Assembly (NCBI GenBank): GCA_951406725.2
Contig: OX597838.1
Span: 3,906,001-3,970,000, forward strand
Length of the DNA stretch: 64,000 bases
Reading direction: 5' to 3'
Origin: Octopus vulgaris
Lineage: Eukaryota
Shown here: positions 2,014 to 48,038 of the stretch, in pieces
Layout: each line of letters begins with the position of its first letter
Numbering within the stretch: position 1 is the first letter of the stretch
Translations under genes and position numbers: made by a program
The notes under the pieces: model-generated
The model's input: the letters and a program-made list of their open reading frames with translations, nothing else
The model's database searches: none
Told to the model about the DNA's origin: nothing

Positions 2014-3219
2014 TACGAGAGGGTACCCAAAAGAACATGTTTACACTTTAATCACCTTTAAAGTATTCTCCATTTGAAGTAAAGCATCGGTCTAGGCGCG
2101 TTTTCCACTGTTCGAAACAGTCCTGGAAACTCTTCCTTCACCTCTCCCACATCTGCAAAACATTTTCCTTTAAGGAGTTTTTTTCATTCGGGGGAACAAA
2201 AAGAATCCGCAAGATCGGGTGAATGGGGAGTGGGAGTATGCGAGGTCATGCCATTTTTGGTCAAAAACTGTCTCATACTCAAAGCGGTGTACGCCGGTGC
2301 ATCGTCGTCATGAAACCACCCAGGTATTTTCGTCTCACTGCGTCTCGGAACCGCCTCAAAACTGCCAAGTAAAATATCTGGTTAACGGTTCGACCAGGAG
2401 GGACAAATTCCGTGTGGACAATTCCTTTCGTATCGATGGAACAAATTAGTATTGTCTTCACATTTGACTTCATTTGACGCACTTCTTGGAACGTGGTGAC
2501 ATTGAATGCTTCCATCGACTTGATTACTGCTTCGTTTCCGGGTCGTAGCCGTAACACCAGCTTTCGTTACCAGTAATAACCTTGGGAAAAAAGGGTCCGG
2601 ATCAACTTCCAACTGTTCTTTTAGTTCACGACACACATTCAGTCGTGACTGCTTTTGATCTCCCGTGAACAAGCGAGACACAGATTTTGCTGCAACTCTT
2701 TTCATTCGCAATTCCTCGCTCAAAATTCCTTGACAGGAGCTCCAGGACACACCAGTCACAAAACAAGTTCGTCAATCCTCCAAGATCAGTTCATGAATTT
2801 TCGTGAAGTTTTCATTCGTTCGGGAGGTCGACGGATGCCTTGAACGAGGCTGGTCCTCAAGCAATAAATGACCATACCTAAAGCGTGGAAACCACACGTA
2901 AACTTGTGTGTTGCTCATGCCAGCATCCTTGTAAGCTGTCTGAAGCATGACAACTGTTTCGGCCATCGTTTTCCTCAGCAGAAAACGTAATTTCTCGGAA
3001 GTACACTGTTACTTCGTTTCCATCATCGCAAAAATTGACGAACAGAGGAGAAGCACAGCAAAACAAAGACGCACCACGTGACAGTACCTCAGTCGACGAT
3101 GGCGACCGACAGACTGATGCCTGAGGGTCGCATCAAGTGGCTTCTAGCGGTGAAAGGCTCAGATACAACTGGCTTGTCACGTATGAAACGTTTCCGATTA
3201 CTTTTGGGTACCTCCACTA
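2014..3219 (-). mobile_element. Decayed mariner DNA transposon with transposase pseudogene
   Basis: TIR cores ggtacccaaaag (~2022) / cttttgggtacc (~3201). Frameshifted minus-strand peptides WFPRFRYG..EDQPRSRHP (HTH), ITGNESWCYGYDPETK, GIVHTEFVPPGRTVNQIFYLAVLRR and HDDAPAYT match mariner transposase motifs. Confidence 0.93.
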
Positions 3220-5587: not shown

Positions 5588-7365
5588 ATATATATATATA
5601 TATGATGCAAACGATTTCCAGTTAACCTAGACGAAACCACTTTTAGTGAAAGCGTTCGAAGGATTCTGTTTGTTAGTTGTAAACAGTCCATGTTTTTTTT
5701 TCTATTATAATGAAGGGAGGAGGGCTCAAAAACATGATAAACCAAAACTTTTGTGCTGAATCTAATATGTCTTAGGACATACGATTCCTAAAGAGAACTA
5801 AAAGACTTTGCTGCTTCTTAAAACCATGCTGTCGAGGTGTTGTGAGTTAACCATGCTGTCGAGGTGTTTAAATGAATCGAAAACAGCTAAGCTTTCAGAG
5901 GTACATTTTAGAGGGAACAGCTATCTCATCGATTAGCCCTATGCTGGTTTTCAATCAGCTGAAGTAGACTGGCCGTTTAAACATATACTGAGTTCGCCCA
6001 AAAAATCTATACACATTTCAGGAATGAAACAAATCTCTATAAATATTTATTGCAATATATTCAGTGTTGTCACAATTTGATAAAACATCGAACGAGGTAT
6101 TTATATTAATAGAGGAACGCGTATAAGTTAAATATTTATGCAGAATTTCCTTTCTTGAGGTATGTCTAAATTTTTTGGTGGACTCTGTGTAGATATGCTT
6201 GCAAAGATGTCCGCTGAGATCTACGCAAGGTCGGACACATCGATTGCAGTTGGGGTAAGTTTAATTTTTTTTTTTTAACCTTTAATTTCTTTATATTGAC
6301 GACGTAAAATTGAAAAAGACGTAACTCAATACGACGTAAGTCGAGGCATGCTTGTATAAGGTAATAAGTTTTGGGATAAAGAGGGGCGGCTAGGTCGACA
6401 GCTGACGCACCTTTGCTTATATATTCATTGATCTGCAGGGCTGATATGGTCCTAAGCCACAACGACAACAACAACAACGGGACGAGTGTATTTCTTCCTA
6501 GATACTTGACCTTCTAATGTTGAGGCTAATATCGCCATTAAATCACATAATAGATTTAGAAAATAGACATCAATAAAAATCCGAAGAACGTATTGGATAA
6601 TGCAGCCATAATGCGGTCCTAGATACGTTGTGATGGTCATGACTGGAACGTATTTGAAGGGAGGTATCAAATAAGATTAATAACTGCCACACGCACACAC
6701 ACACACACACACACACACGCAAACACACGCACACACACACGCACATACGCACATACATACACACCGATACACACATACCAATACACACACACACACAAAC
6801 ACAATGCACACGTACATTTGCACACAAGCACACACACACACATAGACACAAACACATACACACAAACACATACACACCGATGCACACACACACATACACA
6901 ATACACACGTACATTTGCACACACACACACACATACATACAGTCAAACACAAACAAACTCACACAAACAAACACACATACCAAACATGGCGACGTAGCTG
7001 TTACAGCATTTTCTACCAACGTCGTTTAAAAAGCAAAGATAACGTGGTAGGGGGGGGAGGAAGAGGGGGAGGAGAAACCACACAACGATATTGACTTTCT
7101 TCTCCTCTCCCTCCCCCTCGCTCACTTTCTCTCTGTCTCCCTATACTACCCTCACGCTCTCTCTCTCTACCGCTCTCTTACTGGGTTTGTACACACACAC
7201 ACACAAACGGACTCTTTAAGAAGCATAAATGTCTCAAGAGAAGCGATCGTCTGCTGTAAATGTATGTGTGGGGGAGGGGATGTATAGATAGATATGTATT
7301 ATACGTAAGGCGGTGCTCCAGCATGGCCACAGTCAAACGACCGAAACGAGTAAAAAGAATAAAAG

Positions 7366-22793: not shown

Positions 22794-22828
22794 GTTTCCG
22801 ACGAAGAGCTCCGCTCGAAACGTTAAAC
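22794..22828 (+). ncRNA. Minimal type I hammerhead motif, family A (U4->C variant)
   Basis: gttt-CCGACGA-a-gagc(tcc)gctc-GAAA-cg-T-T-aaac; family tail runs to ~22926. Confidence 0.7.
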
Positions 22829-33959: not shown

Positions 33960-34240
33960 GGAACAGTGTAGCAGGAAGCGCGCGGATTGGTTAAATATCC
34001 ACGCACGTGACTGTGAAGAGCAAGCGAACAGAAGTGGACGCACATCACTTGGCGTAACCGTAAATAACGCGGCGTGCCGCTGCTGCCGCCGCCGTCACCA
34101 CGTGTCACCGGTCGCACAAAACAAACAACACGGCGATGCGTGCAAAGGAACGGACGACGCAAGTTTGACGCGTATGACGTACGCTTCGCATGCAACGGCG
34201 CCTCGCTACGAACGTACAGGGTTTCGGAGACCTAACCATG
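33960..34240. promoter_or_regulatory. CpG-dense unique island (candidate promoter/enhancer)
   Basis: Abundant CpG; ATTGG 33986, CACGTG at 34004 and 34099, TGACGT 34175. Confidence 0.4.
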
Positions 34241-34302
34241 AATAACATCAAGAATCTTGCAAAACGAATATATAAACGTACATACATACATACATACATA
34301 CA

Positions 34303-34899
<597 letters not shown>

Positions 34900-35006
34900 T
34901 ATATATATATAATGATAAAAATGGTAAGACAACAAAAGAAAGAAAGAGACCTCGATGTTATGTAAATAGAGAAATTTATCTGTAAATGCCTTTTTTCCGA
35001 TGGCCA

Positions 35007-35067
35007 GATAACTGAAGAGATGGCGGCGTGAATTTCCACCTCAGCATCCGAAACTCGGAGTTTTATC
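35007..35067 (+). ncRNA. Type I hammerhead motif, family B, canonical core
   Basis: gataa-CTGAAGA-gatg(22 nt)catc-c-GAAA-ctc(g)gag-T-T-ttatc. Confidence 0.7.
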
Positions 35068-35102
35068 ATGGCTACCGAATAATTGTCACATATTACATTT
35101 AC

Positions 35103-35200
<98 letters not shown>

Positions 35201-35442
35201 TAATAGTTATCGCCAAGCGAACCTGGCAGTCCAGAAATATAGGACGAATGCTGCCGTTGATTAGCTCCAAGAGGCCATCGCCTCTAGCTAGCTATGTGAC
35301 TCACGAACCTGTGTCCATTATAACCTTCGAACAGTGGGGGTCAGCCGCTTCTCCTCGCTGGTCTGGCATCTACAGACTAGTTTCAGGGTATTTGCCCCTT
35401 ATTAATGTAGAGCAGCCAAAAACTGCAAAAATATCACAGAAA

Positions 35443-35543
35443 CTGTTGCTCAAAGTTTCACGTTTCCGGTCGTCGAACAGCTTTATTTAGATTCTCTCAA
35501 CAAAAGCGTCCGATGAACGGGAACGTGAAACTCTGAGTAGCAG
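35443..35543. ncRNA. Divergent pair of hammerhead motifs, family C
   Basis: Plus 35506-35543: CCGATGA-acg(ggaa)cgt-GAAA-ctc(t)gag-T-A with decayed stem I; minus 35443-35480: degenerate core with ctgt/acag stem I. Confidence 0.6.
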
Positions 35544-35859
35544 ATTTGGTGACATTTTTGCTGCTTTTCAATAAAACATATTACTCTATAAATTGTTTCA
35601 TGTATAAAGTCAACACTTCATTTATAGGTTGTGTCAATATATTATCTGTTTATATATTTGTCTCCGAATATTTTTTCAAAGAAAGATACTCGAAGATAAA
35701 GCTATAGTCATAAGTTAATTGTGCTATTATCAATTTTAATCGCCTGTTAATAGGACATTATACCAACAACACAATGATAATAATCTATGATCTTCAACAG
35801 ATGAAACGATAATATATATACATATACACGCATATATACATACATATATATATATATAT

Positions 35860-35996
<137 letters not shown>

Positions 35997-36079
35997 GACT
36001 CACATAAATAGATATAATACAGCAAAATACACACATATCTATATAGAATTTTAAATTCATATAATGTGTATTTGTGTGC

Positions 36080-36124
<45 letters not shown>

Positions 36125-36129
36125 ATGTA

Positions 36130-36346
36130 TAGCCGCGTGCGTAGCTGTGTGGTAAAACGTTTGCTTCTCAACTACATGGTTCTGGGTTCGGTCTCACTGC
36201 GTGACACCTTGGGCAAGTGTCTTCTATTATAGCCTCGAGCCTTGTGAGTGGATTTGGTAGGTTACGGGGACGTAAACACACCACCATCGGTTGTCAAGCG
36301 ATGTTGAAGGGGGGGGGGCAAACACAGACACACAAACATATACACA

Positions 36347-36402
<56 letters not shown>

Positions 36403-36565
36403 TATGACGGGCTTCTTTCAGTTTCCGTCTACCAAATCCACTTACAGGGCTTTGGTCGGCCCAAGGCTACATTAGAAGACACTTGCCCAAGGGGCCACGC
36501 AGTGTGAATGAACCCGGAACCTTGTGGTTGGTAAGCAAGCTACTTACCACACAGCCACTCCTGCG
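36130..36565. mobile_element. Two SINE family 1 pieces fused in opposite orientation
   Basis: Plus head 36130-36260 abuts minus copy 36261-36565. Confidence 0.85.
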
Positions 36566-36674
36566 TGGTTATAATATGAACAATTTTTACATGATGCTGC
36601 AGAAATTATTTTCTACGTTTTGTACAATATATATCTATTATTCTATAATATGAATAGTATTCGACAGTGACTTC

Positions 36675-36721
36675 GACAGTCCGATGAGGGTGAAGTAGAC
36701 CGAAACTTCGAAGTTACTGTC
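36675..36721 (+). ncRNA. Minimal type I hammerhead motif, family D (U4->C variant)
   Basis: gacagt-CCGATGA-g-ggt(gaagtag)acc-GAAA-cttcgaag-T-T-actgtc; 6-bp stem I, palindromic stem III; preceded by an inverted fragment of its own 3' half. Confidence 0.72.
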
Positions 36722-36754
36722 AGTGCTACTCTTGTTAAAGTATTATAAATATAT

Positions 36755-37152
36755 GTGTGGCTGTGTGGTAAGTAGCTTGCTAACCAACCACATGGTTCAG
36801 GGTTCAGTCCCACTGCGTGGCACCTTGGGCAAGTGTCTTCTACTATAGCCCCGGGCCGACCAATGCCTTATGAGTGGATTTGGTAGACGGAAACTGAAAG
36901 AAGCCCGACGTATATATGTATATATATATATATGTGTTTGTGTGTCTGTGTTTGTCCCCCTAGCATTGCTTGACAACCGATGCTGGCGTGTTTATGTCCC
37001 CGTCACTTAGCGGTTCGGCAAAACAGACCGATAGAATAAGTACTGGGCTTACAAAGAATAAGTCCTTGGGTCTAGTTGCTCGACTAAAGGCGGTGCTCCA
37101 GCATGGCCGCAGTCAAATGACTGAAACAAGTAAAGGAGTAAAAGAGTAAAAG
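36755..37152 (+). mobile_element. SINE family 1, near full length
   Basis: Consensus match with (gagtaaaa) tail. Confidence 0.93.
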
Positions 37153-37781
37153 AGATATATGTACACACGCGCACACGCAAACACACACACATATGCAATT
37201 TATGTGTGTATATGTATTTACGTATCTTTGTATGTATGTATGAGTATGTGCGTGCGAACGTGTGTGTGTAGATATCTCTTGTGAAGCTAATCAATTCTAT
37301 CCCCCCTGCTACGACATTATCATGATGTCGTCAACCGCCAACTCTCGGAGTGTGGGTGGGCCATTCTGAGATCTCTGGAGATTCCATTATGTCAGTAGGG
37401 GTCTCCAGTCACTTCTTCTAACATTGTAGTCAATTGGAATGGTCTCCTACGACCCTTCTTACACAATATAACTAATACTGACGGAGGGTAAGGGGGAGAG
37501 GGATGGGGGAAGGAGGCAGAATTGATTTCAGTTTTATTTATCTAACCCCAATCGAAAAAAAGGGACAAATTTGGTCCCTCGACAGGATTTGAACTCAGCG
37601 CGCAGAAACACGGGAGAAAAATTCCGCAAGGCAATCTATCTGATGCAGGGCTGGATTAAGACCCATAGAGGCCCTAAACACTTAAAAGGTTTTGGTGCCC
37701 TTAAGTATATGTAAATGGTTCAAAATGTAAACAAAATAGGGCGTGGGTTCGTATCTCACTTCTGACAGATGACAGCTTATA

Positions 37782-38180
37782 GGCGTAGGGGTGGCTGTGT
37801 GGTAAGTAGCTTACTTACCGACCAGATGGTTCCGGGTTCAGTCCCACTGCGTGGCACATTGGGAAAGTGTCTACTGCTATAGCCTCGGGCCGACCAAAGC
37901 CTTGTGAGTGGATTTGGTAGACGGAAACTGAAAGAAGCCCGTCGTATATATATGTATGTGTGTGTGTGTGTGTCTGCGTTTGTCCGCCCAACATCGCTTG
38001 ACAACCGGTGCTGGTGTGTTTACGTCCCCGTAACTTAGCGGTTCGGCTTAAGAGACCGATAACATAAGTACTAGGCTTACAAAGAATAAGACCTCGGGTC
38101 GTTTTGCTCGACTAAAGGCGGTGCTCCAGCATGGCCGCAGTCAAATGACTGAAACAAGTAAAAGAGTGAGAGTAAAGAGT
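37782..38180 (+). mobile_element. SINE family 1, full length
   Basis: Consensus match. Confidence 0.93.
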
Positions 38181-38591
38181 ATGGTTATACTGCAGTATTT
38201 GAAATAAGGAACTAAGTTGGAATTACGGAAATGTACTTGCATAGCAAGTGACCTGATCTGAGATTGTGTGCTGGAACGAAAACAATTGCGGCGTGGAAGG
38301 TTACGCTGTAAACAACCTGAACACAATAGAACGCAATAGAAAGACATAATTGTAATGTTTAAAATGATGAAACAATGTAATGATGATCTATTTCTAGCAG
38401 GGTTCTTAGTGGTGGCCGCACGCACGGTTTCTGTGTATAGTGTTTACGTTTGAATATCAAAAGACTGACTTGACGCTTCCAACCGCATCCGCCGTACAAC
38501 TCCTTCGCCGTATCCGCCAAACAGGCGAAGATCTACCCGCTCTTCCTTGCAAAATAAAGACGTCGGGTTGGGGGTCCAATAACAACAACAA

Positions 38592-38593
<2 letters not shown>

Positions 38594-38653
<60 letters not shown>

Positions 38654-38698
38654 ATTGGGAAAATGCTCGGCAAGAAATGGAAACAAAATTGAAAGAAG

Positions 38699-38756
<58 letters not shown>

Positions 38757-38820
38757 TAATAACAACAACAACACCAACAACACCAACAACAACAACAATA
38801 ACAATAACAATAATAATAAT
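38594..38820. repeat. (TAG)n and (AAT/AAC)n microsatellites
   Basis: Direct observation. Confidence 0.95.
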
Positions 38821-39887
38821 GAACCTTATCTTTTAAAAATATAGCTTTGATATGGGACTCTTACTGCTAGAAAAAAGTTTCCCGTTAGATGTCAAACTCA
38901 TCCTTGGCGCCATATTATCTCACGTGACCGTGACGTAGCGAAACCGAAACTGATATTAAATACGGAGAGGAAGGATATCTGGGCTGTTATTAATATCTCA
39001 CTGTGAAACTGTTCCCTAACCTCGAAACCAGTTAACAAGAACCTCGCCTGCCCCTACTCCGGGCCGCCGTGAGATTTTAATCAAAAGCTTGCTATAACAA
39101 CAATAAACAATAAAATCAACAAAAAACCCTTTTCTTCTCTTCCTCTTCATCTTCCTCTTTCTCCTCCTCTTCCTCCTCTTATTCTTCATATTCCTCTTCT
39201 GTTTCCAATATTCACCTGCTCCTTCTCATACACACACGCACACACACACACGCACACACTAACACACACAGATACTCACACATACACACACGCAGATACT
39301 GAGATACACAGACTCACACATACATACGCGTAGATATACAGACACACACACACACACACACACACGCACAAATACACACACGCTCACTCACTCAAATATG
39401 CACACACACAAATACACACACGCACAAACACACACACACAGAAATACTCACACATACAGACACGCACATACACACGTACACACACGCAGATACTCAGATA
39501 CATAGATACTCACACACATACATACATACGCACAAATATACAGAGACACACACACACACGCACAAATAGACACACACACGAGCACAAATACACACACGCT
39601 CACTCACTCAAATATGCACACACACAAATACACACACATACACAGAGATATACTGGCATTCAGACATACAGACACACACAGACATACATACATATCGTCC
39701 TTCACAGATATCTACACATAGATATACAGACACACACACACACACACACACGGAATAATAATCCTTTTGAAATTTGAGCCATGTTTGTTGAGATTAGAGA
39801 TAGGAAGTTTGGTTTGAGGGGACGAAGAGATGGCCTAAGAAAGTGTGTGTCCCTTTGTGAAACTAGGAAATGAAACCTTGTTGGGGG

Positions 39888-39932
<45 letters not shown>

Positions 39933-40019
39933 CGTGTATGCATATATATGTAGATAAGCAGAGATAGATAAATTGTCACACAGAGAGACAAACAAATATC
40001 GCCTCAAGACACTTTCAAA

Positions 40020-40432
40020 GGAGTCGTGTGGTTTCTAGCTTGCTTACCAACCACATGGTTCCGGGTTCAGTCCCACTGCGTGGCACCTTGGCCAAGTGTA
40101 TTCTACTATAGCCTCGGGCCGACCAAAGCCTTGTGAGTGGATTTAGTAGACGGAAACTGAAGGAAGCCCGTCGTATATATGTATATATATATATATATGT
40201 GTGTGTGCGTGTGTGTGTGTTTGTGTGGTCTGTGTTTGTCCCCCTAGCATTGCTTGACAACCGATGCTGGTGTGTTTACGTCCCCGTCACTTAGCGGTTC
40301 GGCAAAAGAGACCGATAGAATAAGTACTGGGCTTACAAAAGAATAAGTCCCGGGGTCGAGTTGTTCGATTAAAGGCGGTGCTCCAGCATGGCCGCAGTCA
40401 AAATGACTGAAACAAGTAAAAGAGTAAAAGAG
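40020..40432 (+). mobile_element. SINE family 1, near full length
   Basis: Consensus match. Confidence 0.93.
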
Positions 40433-40734
40433 TATTTATTTTATTAAAAATGCAAAACAATGCCACGGAGGAATCGACGTACGTTTAAGTAATTAATGAA
40501 CCGCGATATAACGAGGTATAAGTAATTTAATTAATAAATGATTTTTAATATGGCGATTGATTTTTTTTTTTTTTCAGTATATTTATTTATACAATGAATA
40601 CGAGTTTTATATAGAAATTATAAGTTATAATTGGATAAATTTGTGCCAGCATCTGCGGTTATACATATAATTTAAATTATAAACAGAGCAAATTTTAGCC
40701 ATTTCTCCGTGGACTGAAAAAGAAACGATGAGCA

Positions 40735-40777
40735 ACCTTAATCGATTTTCGAACCTTATTGAGTTCTCATCAGAGGC
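40735..40777 (-). ncRNA. Canonical minimal type I hammerhead ribozyme motif
   Basis: Minus strand gcct-CTGATGA-gaac(tcaataag)gttc-GAAA-atcgat-T-A-aggt; all core nucleotides present, palindromic stem III aatcgatt. Confidence 0.8.
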
Positions 40778-40964
40778 GTCTACATCATTCTGACAGTCTC
40801 CAGAGAAACAAGCAGCCAAACTGTTCATATACTCAACAAATGCAGCAGTTACTCTATGAAAGAGTCCCTAATTTGCATACCGAAAGTGTTTAAATATCAT
40901 TATTATTATTATTATTTATAGGATTGAGGTAACTCCTCCAGAAGATATAGAAGTTTCTATATCA

Positions 40965-41143
40965 GACGGATTAAGTCGATTACATCGACCCCAGTGCGTA
41001 ACTGGTACTTAATTTATCGACCCCGAAAGGATGAAAGGCAAAGTCGACCTCGGCGGAATTTGAACTCGAAACGTAACGGCAGACGAAATACCACTAAGCA
41101 GTTCGCCCCGGCGTGCTAACGATTCTGCCAGCTTGACGCCTTT
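40965..41143 (-). mobile_element. SINE family 2
   Basis: Near identical to cores in 8530-9328. Confidence 0.9.
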
Positions 41144-41752
41144 AAAATTTTATGATATTAATTAGTTAATGAGGAGAGCAAAACCATTAATTGCGGGCTG
41201 CACTTGGATTTAGTCTATTAAACCCCGTTAATCACGCACACACACACACACACTCGCACACGACCCCCACCTCCAACTACAGCCTCTCCAAACAACATAT
41301 CTATTTGCCGTGAGCCTATAAAGGGGCCCCCTCAAAGAGGTCGCTTGACCAGCATAATTGGCCGCTAAATTTCTTTCAGATGATACTCCTACTGCTGAAT
41401 AATGTGGTAGACGAGATGGCCACTTTGGAACGTCTTAAAAAGACGGGATGATCACGACTGAAACGACTTCGGTGACTGGTCTACTGGATCAGGGATGAGC
41501 CCCGGGATAAAACAACAACAAAAACAGTGTTTATCTGTTCTGATCGATTGATGTGAGTCAGTGCGCGGTCGTTTGTCCTGTTAGAAGTAGCTGCCTAATC
41601 TCCCTCAAATCTGACCCCGACAGTATTAAAGAAAGTGAGAAGTAAGGACACACAGACACACACACACACACATTATATATCTAACCCCAACCTCGCTCCT
41701 TTGCCATGTCTTTTGTTCCCATATTCATTATTTGATGCTGGACATTAAACGA

Positions 41753-42009
41753 CATCGTCATCATCATCATCGTCATCGTCATCATCATCATCATCATCGC
41801 CGTCGATATCATCGTTGTCAATAACATCAATTTGGATAAAACGCCGTATTAGAAAAGAACTAATCATCGTCATCATCGTCGTCATCAACATCAGCATCAT
41901 CAACATCAACATCAACATCATCATCATCGTCATCATCGTTATCATCATCATCATCGTCGTCATCGTCATCATCATCATCTTCATCAGCATCATCATCATC
42001 AACATCATC

Positions 42010-42064
<55 letters not shown>

Positions 42065-42087
42065 ACATCATCATCTTCATCATCATC

Positions 42088-42172
<85 letters not shown>

Positions 42173-42180
42173 ACATCATT

Positions 42181-42213
<33 letters not shown>

Positions 42214-42220
42214 GTCATCA
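41753..42220. repeat. (ATC)n microsatellite
   Basis: Direct observation; gives poly-Met/poly-Ile ORFs. Confidence 0.95.
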
Positions 42221-42300
42221 TTACCGCCGCCACCACAATACCATCGCCATAATCCCTATCATCGCCATCACCCTCCTCACCACCAGCACCATCACTACCT

Positions 42301-42345
<45 letters not shown>

Positions 42346-42652
42346 CACTACTACTTGTACTACATCTAGAGGGCCTCATTAACCACCGCGTACTCATCAC
42401 CGACAGATATCGCCACCAGTCCTCCTCTCCTCAGCTCCCCACTCCTATCTTCCAAACCTCCACCCTCATCGCCCCAGATTCCCCCAGCATCAACACCACC
42501 ATCATTCCCACCACCACCACCACCACCACCAGCAACATCCATTCCGTACGATAATTTAACCGTTATCTTACTTATCAGTGTAGTCACACTCCATAATACA
42601 CGCGCATACAACCACTCACCCCCTCACATGTGTGTGTGTGTATGTGTGTGTA

Positions 42653-42713
<61 letters not shown>

Positions 42714-42801
42714 GTGTATGTACATATATATATGTATATATATGTGTATGTATATAAATAATATTATATATATGTATGTACGTGTATATATATGTATATA
42801 T

Positions 42802-42843
<42 letters not shown>

Positions 42844-43119
42844 GTGCGTGTGTGTATATACATATATATATATATATTTATATATATGTATACATATATA
42901 CACATATATACTTATACATGCGCGCGCGATTCGCGTTCAGTTCCCCCGGTATCAGATAAGAGGTGAATTAGATCAGGTTATCCTCCCCCACCGTCTTAGC
43001 TTTTGTCTGTCACTTGACCGGCAGATAATATCTGATTGTCATCTATAACGCCACAGTTGACCTCACACTCACACGTGTAATCTCTCCTCCTCTCTCTTTC
43101 TCTCTCACTTGCACACGCA

Positions 43120-43179
<60 letters not shown>

Positions 43180-43234
43180 TACACATACAGTGTCTCTCAC
43201 ACATCTACATGCATCTTTCTCTGTCACATAAAAG

Positions 43235-43700
43235 ATGGATGGCAAAGTTGAAAATCTTAAGTATCGCGCTGTGCCTGTATCTTGGCTCTAGAACTTTGTT
43301 GCAATAGTCTCATTTTCTCTAATTATCCGATTGTCCAGATATGAAATGTCCCTCATTAATTTCTGTTGCGAATTTAATCAATTCTTCAATGTTATTGATT
43401 CATTTATGAAATCTTGAGAAAGCTTTCTTCTGCTCCCCACCAAAAATAAAACCGTCATCCCAAAAAAATTTTTCATTTCTTTTTAATGGCATTCGAAACA
43501 CTGATCGAAAATAAACGCGAATCGGCCATAGATTTATTTCTGCCAAGAATTCCATTATTAGTGTTGCATATGTGGGTGCGACTTACGCCCCATTGCCATC
43601 CCTTTTATTTGAAAGCAATATTTATTATGAAAAAGAAATATTTGTCTTCTGGCATCAACAGTAATCCTTGTATGAATAATTTTGAGGATCTTTCCTGATT
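43235..43700 (-). pseudogene. Penelope-like element reverse transcriptase remnant
   Basis: Frameshifted peptides FLFHNKYCFQIKGMAMG / VAPTYATLIMEFL / FFWDDGFIF / IKFATE / ISYLD / DTGTARYLRF follow the order of PLE RT motifs (QxxGxAMG, APxxAxLxM, RYxDD, IxFTxE, FLD, KPT...YL). Confidence 0.8.
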
Positions 43701-43770
43701 TATATACGAGTATCAGTATCAGTATTTCTCTCTCTAGAATACCACTGACACCGATCCTGATATATGCGTA

Positions 43771-43801
<31 letters not shown>

Positions 43802-43819
43802 ATATAGAGAGAGAGAGAG

Positions 43820-43895
<76 letters not shown>

Positions 43896-43906
43896 TTGAT
43901 AGATTT

Positions 43907-43946
<40 letters not shown>

Positions 43947-44133
43947 CATGTACATTTTTCCTGCTAAATGTATTTAACATTCTGTGTAAATTCACTTGCA
44001 TTTATATCTCTACCAACTCAAGTTCAAATCTCTTGAGCACTTCGAAATGTATTCTATAGAGAGAACACCTGTCTCTAACCTATATACACACACACACACA
44101 CACACACACGCACACTCACACACACGTGCACAC

Positions 44134-44206
<73 letters not shown>

Positions 44207-44802
44207 CCAAAACTTAGTTTACAATAGATTAACGGGTGGCTGAGTAGGGTGTATGGGTAGAGTAGTGGTGGCGGATGAGTAGAGAGGTAAGTGGATGGTT
44301 GGGCAGGAATGCTGATGTGTTAAGTATTAACTGGAAAAGAATATACCCAGGTAGATTGGTAATGAGGGAGGCAGGTGAAAGGTAAGAAGACGAAAGTGAG
44401 AAGTCGGTTAGGAGGGTAGAGTGGGTTGGATGGGAGGAATACGGGTAGGTAAGTATAGACTGGTCGGGGCAGGTAGGATGTGACGTTTACTAAATACGCT
44501 GGAGGTGTGTGTGCCATTGTGTAAATGTATGTGCGCACGCGCGAGTAAATGGAACCGACAGAGGAAGTAAGGTGAGAGAGATGATGTTTCTTCCATTCCT
44601 TTCTAGTTGTTTCATAATCTTGTAAGTTATATAATAGATGTTTTATACACACACACACACACACATATATATGTATATATATATACATATATATACATAT
44701 ATGTATAAATATATATATGTATATATATATAAGTATATATATAAGCATATAAATATATATATATAAGAATATGTATATACACACACACTTATATATAGAC
44801 AT

Positions 44803-44881
<79 letters not shown>

Positions 44882-45020
44882 TTGAATAGATTAAATACAG
44901 TGGAGATTATGTATGCGTATGTATATGTGTGTGTATATGTATATATATATATACACAACGCACACATATATACATATACATTCATACACATATTGGAAAG
45001 TATATATGTATATATATATA

Positions 45021-45186
45021 GGCGCAGGCGTGGGTGTGTGGTAAGAGGCTTCCTTCCCAATCACATGGCTCCGGGTTCAGTCCCACTGCATGGCACTTTG
45101 GACAAGTGTCTTCTAATATAAGCCTCGGATTGACCAAAGCCTTGTGAGTGGATTTGGTAGACGGAAACTGAAAGAAGAACGTCGTA
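45021..45186 (+). mobile_element. SINE family 1, 5' part
   Basis: Consensus match. Confidence 0.88.
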
Positions 45187-45206
45187 TACATACATACATA
45201 CATCTA

Positions 45207-45265
<59 letters not shown>

Positions 45266-45305
45266 GTACATAAACACAAAAAATGCATAAATACATCTGT
45301 CTCCT

Positions 45306-45340
45306 GTTTCTGATGAAGAGCTTTGCTCGAAACGTAAAAC
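45306..45340 (+). ncRNA. Minimal type I hammerhead motif, family A, canonical core
   Basis: gttt-CTGATGA-a-gagc(ttt)gctc-GAAA-cg-T-A-aaac (GUA site); family tail to ~45453; embedded in (TA)n. Confidence 0.78.
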
Positions 45341-45469
45341 CACCTTTCTTTCCTTCCCTGAGCGTCTGCTAATACTTTGCATGTACCACATCCTCGCTTT
45401 GTTGTTTGTTGTTTTTTCTTGTTTTATCTTCGTTTTTTTTTTGTGGATTAACTAAATATACATATACAT

Positions 45470-45525
<56 letters not shown>

Positions 45526-45633
45526 GCACACGTATATACATCTATATGTATTTATATGTATATATATACAATGCATATATATATAAATATATGTATGTAT
45601 ATGTATGTGTGCATTTATATATACATACATATA

Positions 45634-45719
<86 letters not shown>

Positions 45720-46197
45720 ATGTATGTATGTATGTATGTATGTATGTATGTATGTACGTATGTAGGTATGTACGTATACATTGAAAATATACATATACAT
45801 ATATATGTATATATATAGAAATGGAGAAGTGAGCAAAGTCCATTAAAAAAATATGAAGAACTCTACGAAACGATATTGTTGTATACAAAAGAAAAAGAAT
45901 AAAAAAAAGGTTTGCATCTCTAATTACCAAAGTTGGAAATGGTGAAAAGTTCTTTAAAGAATCACGTTATCTTTTACAAATATTATTCCATTTTGTAATT
46001 GGCAATCCGATATTTGTTTGCCAAAATATTCCAGGCTCTCTCTTAGACCCAGTCTGGTTTTCATCTGCGGATGATGCCTGGATTTTATATTTAGTCTAAA
46101 TATGAAGTGAAGAATGGTACCCGCTCTTCGATCAACGTAGATGGGGTTCTTTTTCTTTTTTACACCTGTGTGGGTGTTCGTATATATGTCTATGGTA

Positions 46198-46249
<52 letters not shown>

Positions 46250-46368
46250 GACATATATATGCAGGTAGGTATATATATGTATATAAATGCACGCATATAT
46301 ACATATATACACATACACATATATGTGTATATATCCGTGTGTGTGTGTGTGTATACAAATATATATTT

Positions 46369-46444
<76 letters not shown>

Positions 46445-46582
46445 TTATGTATATATGTAGATATATACGAATGTCAATACATACGTATATACATATGAGT
46501 ACGTATTTATATACAAATATATATATATACATATGTGTATGTTTATACATATACACACACACACACACATATACATAAGCAT

Positions 46583-46797
46583 TTGGCGGCGAGCTGGCAG
46601 AATCGTTAGCACACCGGGCGAAATGCTTAGCGGTATCTCGTCTGTCTTTACGCTCTGAGTTCAAATTCCGTCAAGGTCGACTTTGCCTTTTATCCTTTCG
46701 GGATCGATGAAATAAGTAACAGTGGAACACTTCAGTCGATGTAACAGCTTACCCGCTTCCTGGAAACTGCTGGCCTTGTGCCAAAATTTGAAACCTA
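46583..46797 (+). mobile_element. SINE family 2
   Basis: ggcggcgagctggcagaatcgttagc head plus core. Confidence 0.88.
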
Positions 46798-46805
46798 TAT
46801 ATACA

Positions 46806-46846
<41 letters not shown>

Positions 46847-47068
46847 TCATGCAAACCTCCCACACATTCACACCCCCGCACACCCTCACACATTATCTAT
46901 AAGTGTTTTCATATAAAATTCAGACCCTATTGTGTTTCCGTACACCTGCTACACTTGTCTTTGGTTTTCTACTTAAAATTTTGACTCACTTTCCAGGAAT
47001 TTCACATCGCTTACCCGCCACGTGGATCCCGCCTGTGTGCGATATATATAAGCTCATATACATCCATA

Positions 47069-47140
<72 letters not shown>

Positions 47141-47256
47141 TACACACACCTTTACTTATATGTACATATATGCACTTACATAATGTATATATAAATATAT
47201 ATATGTTTGCGTGTATATATATATGTGTGTGTGTGTGTGAGTGTGTGTGTGTGTGT

Positions 47257-47297
<41 letters not shown>

Positions 47298-47721
47298 TGT
47301 GTGTGTGTGGGCGTGTGTGGGCGTGTGGCCGAGTGGTTACAGTGCTGCACTCACAATCGCGAGATGGTGGGTTCTCTTGCTGGACCGAGTGCTGTGCTGT
47401 GTCCTTGTGAAAAAACAAATCCCTTCATCTCACGTTGCCCTTCCTTTAATGCGACTCCTGACGCCTGGCACACCATGGCACCTGTACAGGCAACGTCGAC
47501 TTGATGATAGGGAGTGAGCTAACGTTACGGCACATACATCTGATCGCTATAAACGAATTAAATGTGTGCAGCTTGTTCAGCAAGAAATTGCAGAAGCGTC
47601 CACGAGACACTACCGTTATCATCATCATCATCATCATCGTCATCGTCATCGGTCACTTAAGCAATGTAACTACACATGTGTTGTTGACGATTTGTTTTCC
47701 TTCTTGGCCTTTTCCCTTTCT

Positions 47722-47760
47722 CGTTTTCCGACGAAGAGCCTTGCTCGGAACGTCAAAACG
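47722..47760 (+). ncRNA. Hammerhead motif, family A (U4->C, A13->G)
   Basis: cgtttt-CCGACGA-a-gagc(ctt)gctc-GGAA-cg-T-C-aaaacg; stem I covaries relative to the other copies. Confidence 0.65.
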
Positions 47761-48038
47761 TTTTCCTTTTTACTCAGCGTACAACTAATACATTCCTTGT
47801 GCACGTCCTCTCGTTATGTTTTAATTGTTAATTTTTTTGTTCGTTTATTTGAACTAAATTGGTCTCTATGATAATGGTGCGAAGCCACAATGATATTTTG
47901 GTTCATTGACTGACGAGGATTACTCAACTGCAAATATTGCGTGTATCGTGTCCTTGTCTATATACCCCGTCCGTTAAGCTTCCGTCTAGTTTCCCGTCGC
48001 TCTACTTTCCTCTATCTTTTTATCCTTGTTGTGTTCTG

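Follow-up and report, generated by a model that had tools for sequence, protein, structure and literature searches.

The hammerhead motif and its surroundings

In the 64-kb window, the whole stretch of octopus DNA analysed here, the minus strand of 40777-40735 carries a complete type I hammerhead pattern with all core bases present, according to both sequence reading and descriptor scan. It starts with the stem I 5′ arm GCCT (40777-40774) and the core CTGATGA (40773-40767), continues with stem II and its loop (40766-40751) and GAAA (40750-40747), and ends with ATCGAT, then TA (40740-40739) and AGGT (40738-40735). The 8-nt palindromic stem III, AATCGATT (AAUCGAUU in RNA letters), occupies 40747-40740, and the UUA site places the predicted cut between 40739 and 40738. 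The core CUGANGA / GAAA / UH, closed stems II and III and an open stem I assign the motif to type I. The first-pass annotation had listed every conserved core base, the palindromic stem III, the UUA site with its cut 3′ of 40739 and a position outside (TA)n, all of which are borne out, as is its statement that the motif has no sequence relative elsewhere in the 64 kb. It had also placed a 4-bp stem II directly after the core; the location holds, and counting the closing U-G lengthens the stem to 5 bp around a 6-nt loop. The G10.1-C11.1 pair is present. The identity of the motif as a hammerhead is supported by this anatomy.

Stem I consists of 4 bp including one G-U, and beyond a 2×2 internal loop lie longer helices. 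Folding of 40700-40810 (-37.6 kcal/mol) predicts, on the minus strand at 40701-40809, that stem I is extended and that outer helices surround the hammerhead, with fold z-scores of -3.7 for 111 nt, -1.2 for 81 nt and -0.4 for 53 nt. In this fold the extended stem I displays an internal loop and a bulge which, together with the 6-nt loop II, are candidates for loop 1-loop 2 contacts. This arrangement may resemble the geometry of the Schistosoma hammerhead. In the predicted monomer, the core is paired to the palindrome and the probability of the active fold is about 5e-6. With two focal strands, the minimum-energy fold is an exact double hammerhead sharing an 8-bp stem III (-39.1 vs 2 × -18.3). 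Such a double hammerhead was the predicted dimer minimum in one of the nine family sequences tested, the one being the focal copy, and as a family-wide argument dimer folding is weak.

The motif is the single strict descriptor match in the window. In 60 simulated windows (order-3 Markov) one strict match was obtained and none with a palindromic stem III. Rfam hammerhead models did not match it at the gathering score nor at E up to 10, at three scales. A relaxed descriptor detected three more hammerhead-like motifs of other families, at + 22798, + 36681 and + 45310, equally unmatched by Rfam at the gathering score. The one at + 36681-36718 has a CCGAUGA core and a 6-bp stem I; its stem II is weak, and its stem III is a palindrome of 10 nt. 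Those at + 45310-45336 and + 22798-22824 form one related family of minimal Penelope-like element (PLE)-type hammerheads, with an extra base before stem II and an ACGU palindrome; the latter has a C at core position 4.

The hammerhead belongs to a 5′-truncated copy (40675-40893, minus strand, unit positions about 112-328 by alignment to the family) of a dispersed repeat of ~305 bp. This copy is a lone monomer with one hammerhead; its usual 3′ tail is short of the final ~15-25 nt, and the TA run is missing. An (AAT)n run (40887-40925) adjoins its truncated 5′ end, followed at 40968-41140 (minus strand) by a very high-copy repeat (54 copies in the fetched loci; read depth ~20,000), which we take to be a SINE partly from its abundance. 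On the other side, at 40523-40682 (plus strand), a nuclear insertion of DNA from the mitochondrial small-subunit rRNA region overlaps the repeat 3′ end by ~8 nt, and a second SINE-like repeat (61 copies in the fetched loci) lies at 40240-40430 (minus strand). Hence what had been described as unique-looking DNA is a high-copy dispersed repeat set between one SINE with (AAT)n and another with mitochondrial DNA. The insertion matches 7089-7238 of a 15,651-bp contig (C227) at 83% over 160 columns (E 5e-42), and this contig is of mitochondrial type, since it matches rRNA and contains long ORFs when translated with code 5; among 17 other matches of 40523-40682 in the assembly, one is the mitochondrial contig itself. 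Loss of the tail and capture of mitochondrial DNA likely occurred through break repair. A poly(A)-like end near 40560 suggested a processed pseudogene, which was rejected as this is a T-run within the mitochondrial fragment. Read depth of 120-500 at 40582-40685 was rejected as expression of the locus, since it most likely represents mitochondrial rRNA.

As for coding capacity, the longest frame across the focal copy (80 aa) has no Pfam match, and no frame with reverse transcriptase (RT) plus GIY-YIG is joined to the repeat within 34000-48000. The 146 ORFs of the window contain no host-gene domain, with three sub-threshold matches besides transposase pieces. The latter are mariner-type remnants at 2282-3008 (minus strand), PF01359 being over its cut-off and PF17906 under it.

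A dispersed repeat family

A search of the 2.8-Gb genome with 40620-40900 gave 2112 first-look candidates, which are not copy numbers; 40 were scored, and the 39 other full matches among them were 89-94% identical over ~220 bp. With the repeat alone as query, 2062 candidates appeared, again not to be read as copy numbers, of which 40 were scored. The 35-nt core was found at 81 places within one mismatch and at six exactly, against 0 for the control. A check of genome copy number had been proposed in the first-pass annotation, and these figures contradict the unique-looking DNA that it described.

Units repeat every 304-305 bp, with a GC content of 36-38%. The unit is non-coding and carries one type I hammerhead, within the 150-450 bp and GC <45% described for retrozymes (PMC7229834). 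Copies share a common 3′ end about 75-90 nt beyond the cut site, at unit positions 336-367 in 29/29 copies, 339-358 in 25/33 and 339-363 in 26/40. A dinucleotide repeat directly follows this end in 23/29, 15/33, 15/40 and 13/30 copies, raw counts in a genome that is itself microsatellite-rich. The 5′ ends are ragged and spread out, and no pile-up at the cut site was seen among family copies, suggesting that copying passes through the ribozyme site and that the template is a circle or an uncut multimer. Longer copies enter the tail of a preceding unit, and alignment reveals partial head-to-tail tandems of up to ~2.2 units. Two cores in tandem, a retrozyme feature that the family displays and the focal copy does not, occur at six places by exact pattern and at more by alignment; core pattern scans and anchored places gave no long tandem arrays. 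A 24-mer from the unit's 5′ part was used to anchor 49 places; wherever these share sequence upstream, it is the tail of the previous unit, and no ORF-like common flank was found there. Thus the family combines partial tandems with 5′ truncation at random, a short tail leading to a fixed 3′ end and, by raw counts, microsatellite abutment, the anatomy of PLE-mobilised copies. Circular folds of five copies were only mildly stable (z -2.2 to -0.2, 62-68% paired).

Most copies contain a TATTTATA box ~130 nt upstream of the core, at unit position about 95-105 (e.g. L012). It is not in the truncated focal copy, resembles a box at the 3′ end of the PLE L167 and, judging from its sequence, is a possible internal promoter. 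Separately, a composite repeat of ~1.65 kb (L039:999-2645 and relatives L101-L122, ~20 copies, fixed 5′ end) carries just ~120 nt from the end of the unit, with its hammerhead and tail, behind a different upstream sequence that nevertheless provides 5-bp pairing with the stem I 3′ arm. We considered it as parent or as cargo-carrying retrozyme and rejected both, since sequence past the TA run is common to its copies as well; the unit piece is probably a passenger, inserted in truncated form and amplified with the composite. L115 (-2097) and L119 (-477, -132) contain hammerhead-like motifs of another family, in which GAA is followed by a palindromic ACATGCATGT.

In three RNA-seq runs of organism B, unit depth was about 4-76 per direction vs ~20,000 over the adjacent SINE. 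About 6% of each run was used at 85% likeness, and the runs appear unstranded. The reads are informative at family level, may come from another species and belong to libraries that may exclude circles. With the same reservation about circles, abundant unit RNA was not seen in these runs, nor was any pile-up of read ends over the unit, at low, family-level depth. Contigs of the organism A run match the unit at roughly 85-90%, from which the repeat family probably occurs in relatives.

Mobilisation and preservation

PLEs co-exist with the family in this genome. A GIY-YIG profile search returned 6136 candidates, of which 150 were scored, many of them in 781-aa open frames. In L164 and L167 GIY-YIG exceeds the curated cut-off, which the RT narrowly misses, and both have a cysteine-rich linker between the two domains, as does Neptune (PMC8557442). 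Two PLE families bear sense-strand hammerhead-like motifs in their 3′ ends, with variant cores and 6-8-nt palindromic stem III. The RT/GIY-YIG elements L167 (+4106, -1298), L171, L179 and L158 possess such 3′-end motifs with cores CCGAAGA; CUUGAAGA, in which stem I pairs perfectly over 5 bp and stem III is palindromic, and L167 has an upstream inverted copy of its 3′ end. A young PLE family (L161-L165, L191, L192) contains many intact 781-aa frames overlapping an upstream frame of 330-430 aa, and its 3′ end is rich in CCAAT and TGACGTC motifs. Descriptor scans found no canonical hammerhead in it, nor in what is described as the commonest 781-aa PLE family.

No parent PLE was found. The unit had no blastn match (E<1e-3) in 50 PLE loci, a small sample from the top 150 of the 6136 candidates. 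Translated frames of the composite repeat gave, among the matches listed, SINE-derived matches only against the PLE loci, and no PLE frame lies between two inverted unit copies 3.5 kb apart on C19. PLE mobilisation is nevertheless likely, from the anatomy of the copies and from the relationships described in bioRxiv 10.64898/2026.07.22.740005.

We therefore consider the focal sequence, with good confidence, as a retrozyme copy mobilised by PLEs and inert at its locus. Source copies with two tandem units would be transcribed, and their two hammerheads would pair via the AAUCGAUU palindrome into a double hammerhead cutting at UUA. This would release a 305-nt monomer, likely circularised. A PLE protein would then prime on TA-rich DNA, always about 75-90 nt beyond the cut site, and reverse copying round the template with a random stop would generate copies from <1 to about 2 units. 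In the focal case, copying would have halted at unit position 112 and the tail would have been lost later, likely during repair with capture of mitochondrial DNA.

The repeat could instead be a solo pseudo-LTR (pLTR) or the 3′ end of an autonomous PLE, left by 5′-truncated insertions. Such an origin would agree with the layout that PLE ends share here (TATA-like box, hammerhead-like motif with palindromic stem III, short tail, TA run) and with the report that minimal hammerheads (min-HHRs) in genomes are mostly single motifs of truncated PLEs (PMC4209133). Yet copies extending upstream enter a previous unit and not an ORF, and the unit is without match in the 50 loci sampled among the best 150 of 6136 candidates; we regard this origin as unlikely. 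It is quite unlikely, too, that the retrozyme was moved by another retrotransposon (LINE) or mainly amplified at the DNA level, and not by PLE proteins. That no sequence link between unit and PLE appeared in these 50 loci would fit, as would the ~120-nt unit piece apparently amplified within the composite repeat. On the other hand, unit copies have no poly(A) tail, while the partial tandems, the constant 3′ end, its short terminal redundancy and the TA-repeat targets correspond to PLE insertions (PMC8557442), and kinship of retrozymes and pLTRs has been reported (bioRxiv 10.64898/2026.07.22.740005).

A further reading, in which the host retains the focal motif as a functioning ribozyme that processes a host transcript, can be weighed by a test of selection. 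Among the 49 anchored places, 41 were fetched, chosen independently of the core, and 32 of these span the ribozyme. Their cores carry changes at 40/352 sites, where rates for the rest of the unit, matched for base and CpG, would give 44.6 (P 0.27). Nine of the 32 retain an intact core, and one retains core and three stems together. The family core thus decays neutrally, and core and helices showed no excess constraint over their flanks that would indicate purifying selection.

The focal copy itself has an intact core and three stems and differs from the family majority at 8/216 positions, fewer than any of the 32 unbiased copies (mean divergence 11.9%, range 6-28%, gaps counted); in a larger, biased set, 6/105 copies are as close to the majority or closer. 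This low divergence, together with the exact double hammerhead as minimum-energy fold of two strands, would fit host retention. However, its eight changes, all transitions, are not depleted in the ribozyme helices, and five of them are in loop II, the stem I extension or just past it. Furthermore, the flanking SINEs, used as local mutation controls, are equally well preserved: they rank 13/54 (40968-41140) and 2/61 (40240-40430) for low divergence and have kept 16/18 and 10/10 CpG, respectively, compared with family means of 65% and 63%, while the focal repeat copy has kept 5/5 vs 56% in its family. Intactness shared with the flanking SINEs points to a low-mutation neighbourhood rather than to selection, and the pristine look of the focal copy is probably due to slow mutation at CpG in this neighbourhood or to a young copy. 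The window also contributes no host-gene domain in its 146 ORFs, although the motif may lie in an intron of a distant gene, and the monomer, with no tandem partner, is predicted to be inactive. Host retention, as put forward by the first-pass annotation, is therefore not supported and in our estimation very improbable; were it true, the octopus would offer a rare instance of ribozyme domestication in an invertebrate. The activity suggested alongside it is doubtful at this locus, which offers a single unit whose monomer is predicted to fold inactive. An equally slim chance can be given to a host-kept switch, in which a monomer locked by core-palindrome pairing would turn on when paired with a second transcript, leading to concentration-dependent cutting of host RNA. 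Finally, a chance match to the hammerhead pattern, which the silent Rfam models might suggest, is next to negligible given the single strict match per 60 simulated windows, none with a palindrome, and the complete motif in the family majority sequence.

Comparison with known hammerhead systems

The present work adds, modestly, one older and decaying hammerhead retrozyme family to the octopus genome, in a class already well described in molluscs and other animals. No paper dedicated to cephalopod retrozymes was found in the literature searched; motifs or PLE families of cephalopods may appear in the supplements of PMC4209133 and PMC8557442. The lesson is that an intact solitary hammerhead in such a genome should be called host-retained only once its copy number has been checked and a local control for mutation applied.

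Having no ORF and decaying neutrally, the family stands outside both autonomous PLEs and host-domesticated ribozymes. Amniote intronic hammerheads are few-copy and highly conserved, whereas the focal motif is one of very many neutrally decaying copies. With these intronic hammerheads, which PMC7229834 mentions, it has in common to be a single hammerhead in non-coding DNA.

The type I hammerheads in the pLTRs of PLEs (Cervera and De la Pena 2014, PMC4209133) are closer, sharing the G10.1-C11.1 pair, palindromic helix III and 4-bp proximal helix I. In that account, the min-HHR with its palindromic helix III is predicted to act as a dimer, single motifs being inactive in vitro, and the predicted folding of the focal motif agrees with the dimer model and with the inactive single motifs of PMC4209133 and PMC6155905. 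Unlike the min-HHR (PMC4209133), the focal motif is without the extra base between A9 and stem II, its stem II has 5 bp and not 7-8, its helix I is extended and well-formed, and no ORF is attached. It is nearer to the canonical type of the same source (helix III of 1-2 bp, palindromic loop of 2-4 nt).

The closest relatives are the retrozymes. Metazoan non-LTR retrozymes, which include Mytilus repeats of 350-390 bp (PMC7229834), resemble the octopus family in their small non-coding unit (here 305 bp, GC 36-38%) with a single type I hammerhead, in units placed head-to-tail, in co-existing PLEs and in a mollusc-like host. They differ from it in that the octopus family is found mostly as dispersed monomers and partial dimers, with no long arrays found and no abundant RNA in the three organism B runs. 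The family thus displays those genomic features of the non-LTR retrozymes of PMC7229834 that can be tested, and its circular RNA and cleavage are predicted. Many solo monomers and co-occurrence with PLEs are also seen among Xenopus retrozymes (Li, Clavereau, Pollet, bioRxiv 10.64898/2026.07.22.740005), where solo monomers are interpreted as possibly non-transposing offspring; octopus and molluscs are not mentioned there. There, 24/57 families match known transposable elements, nearly all of them PLE ends, in contrast to the octopus unit, with no parent found.
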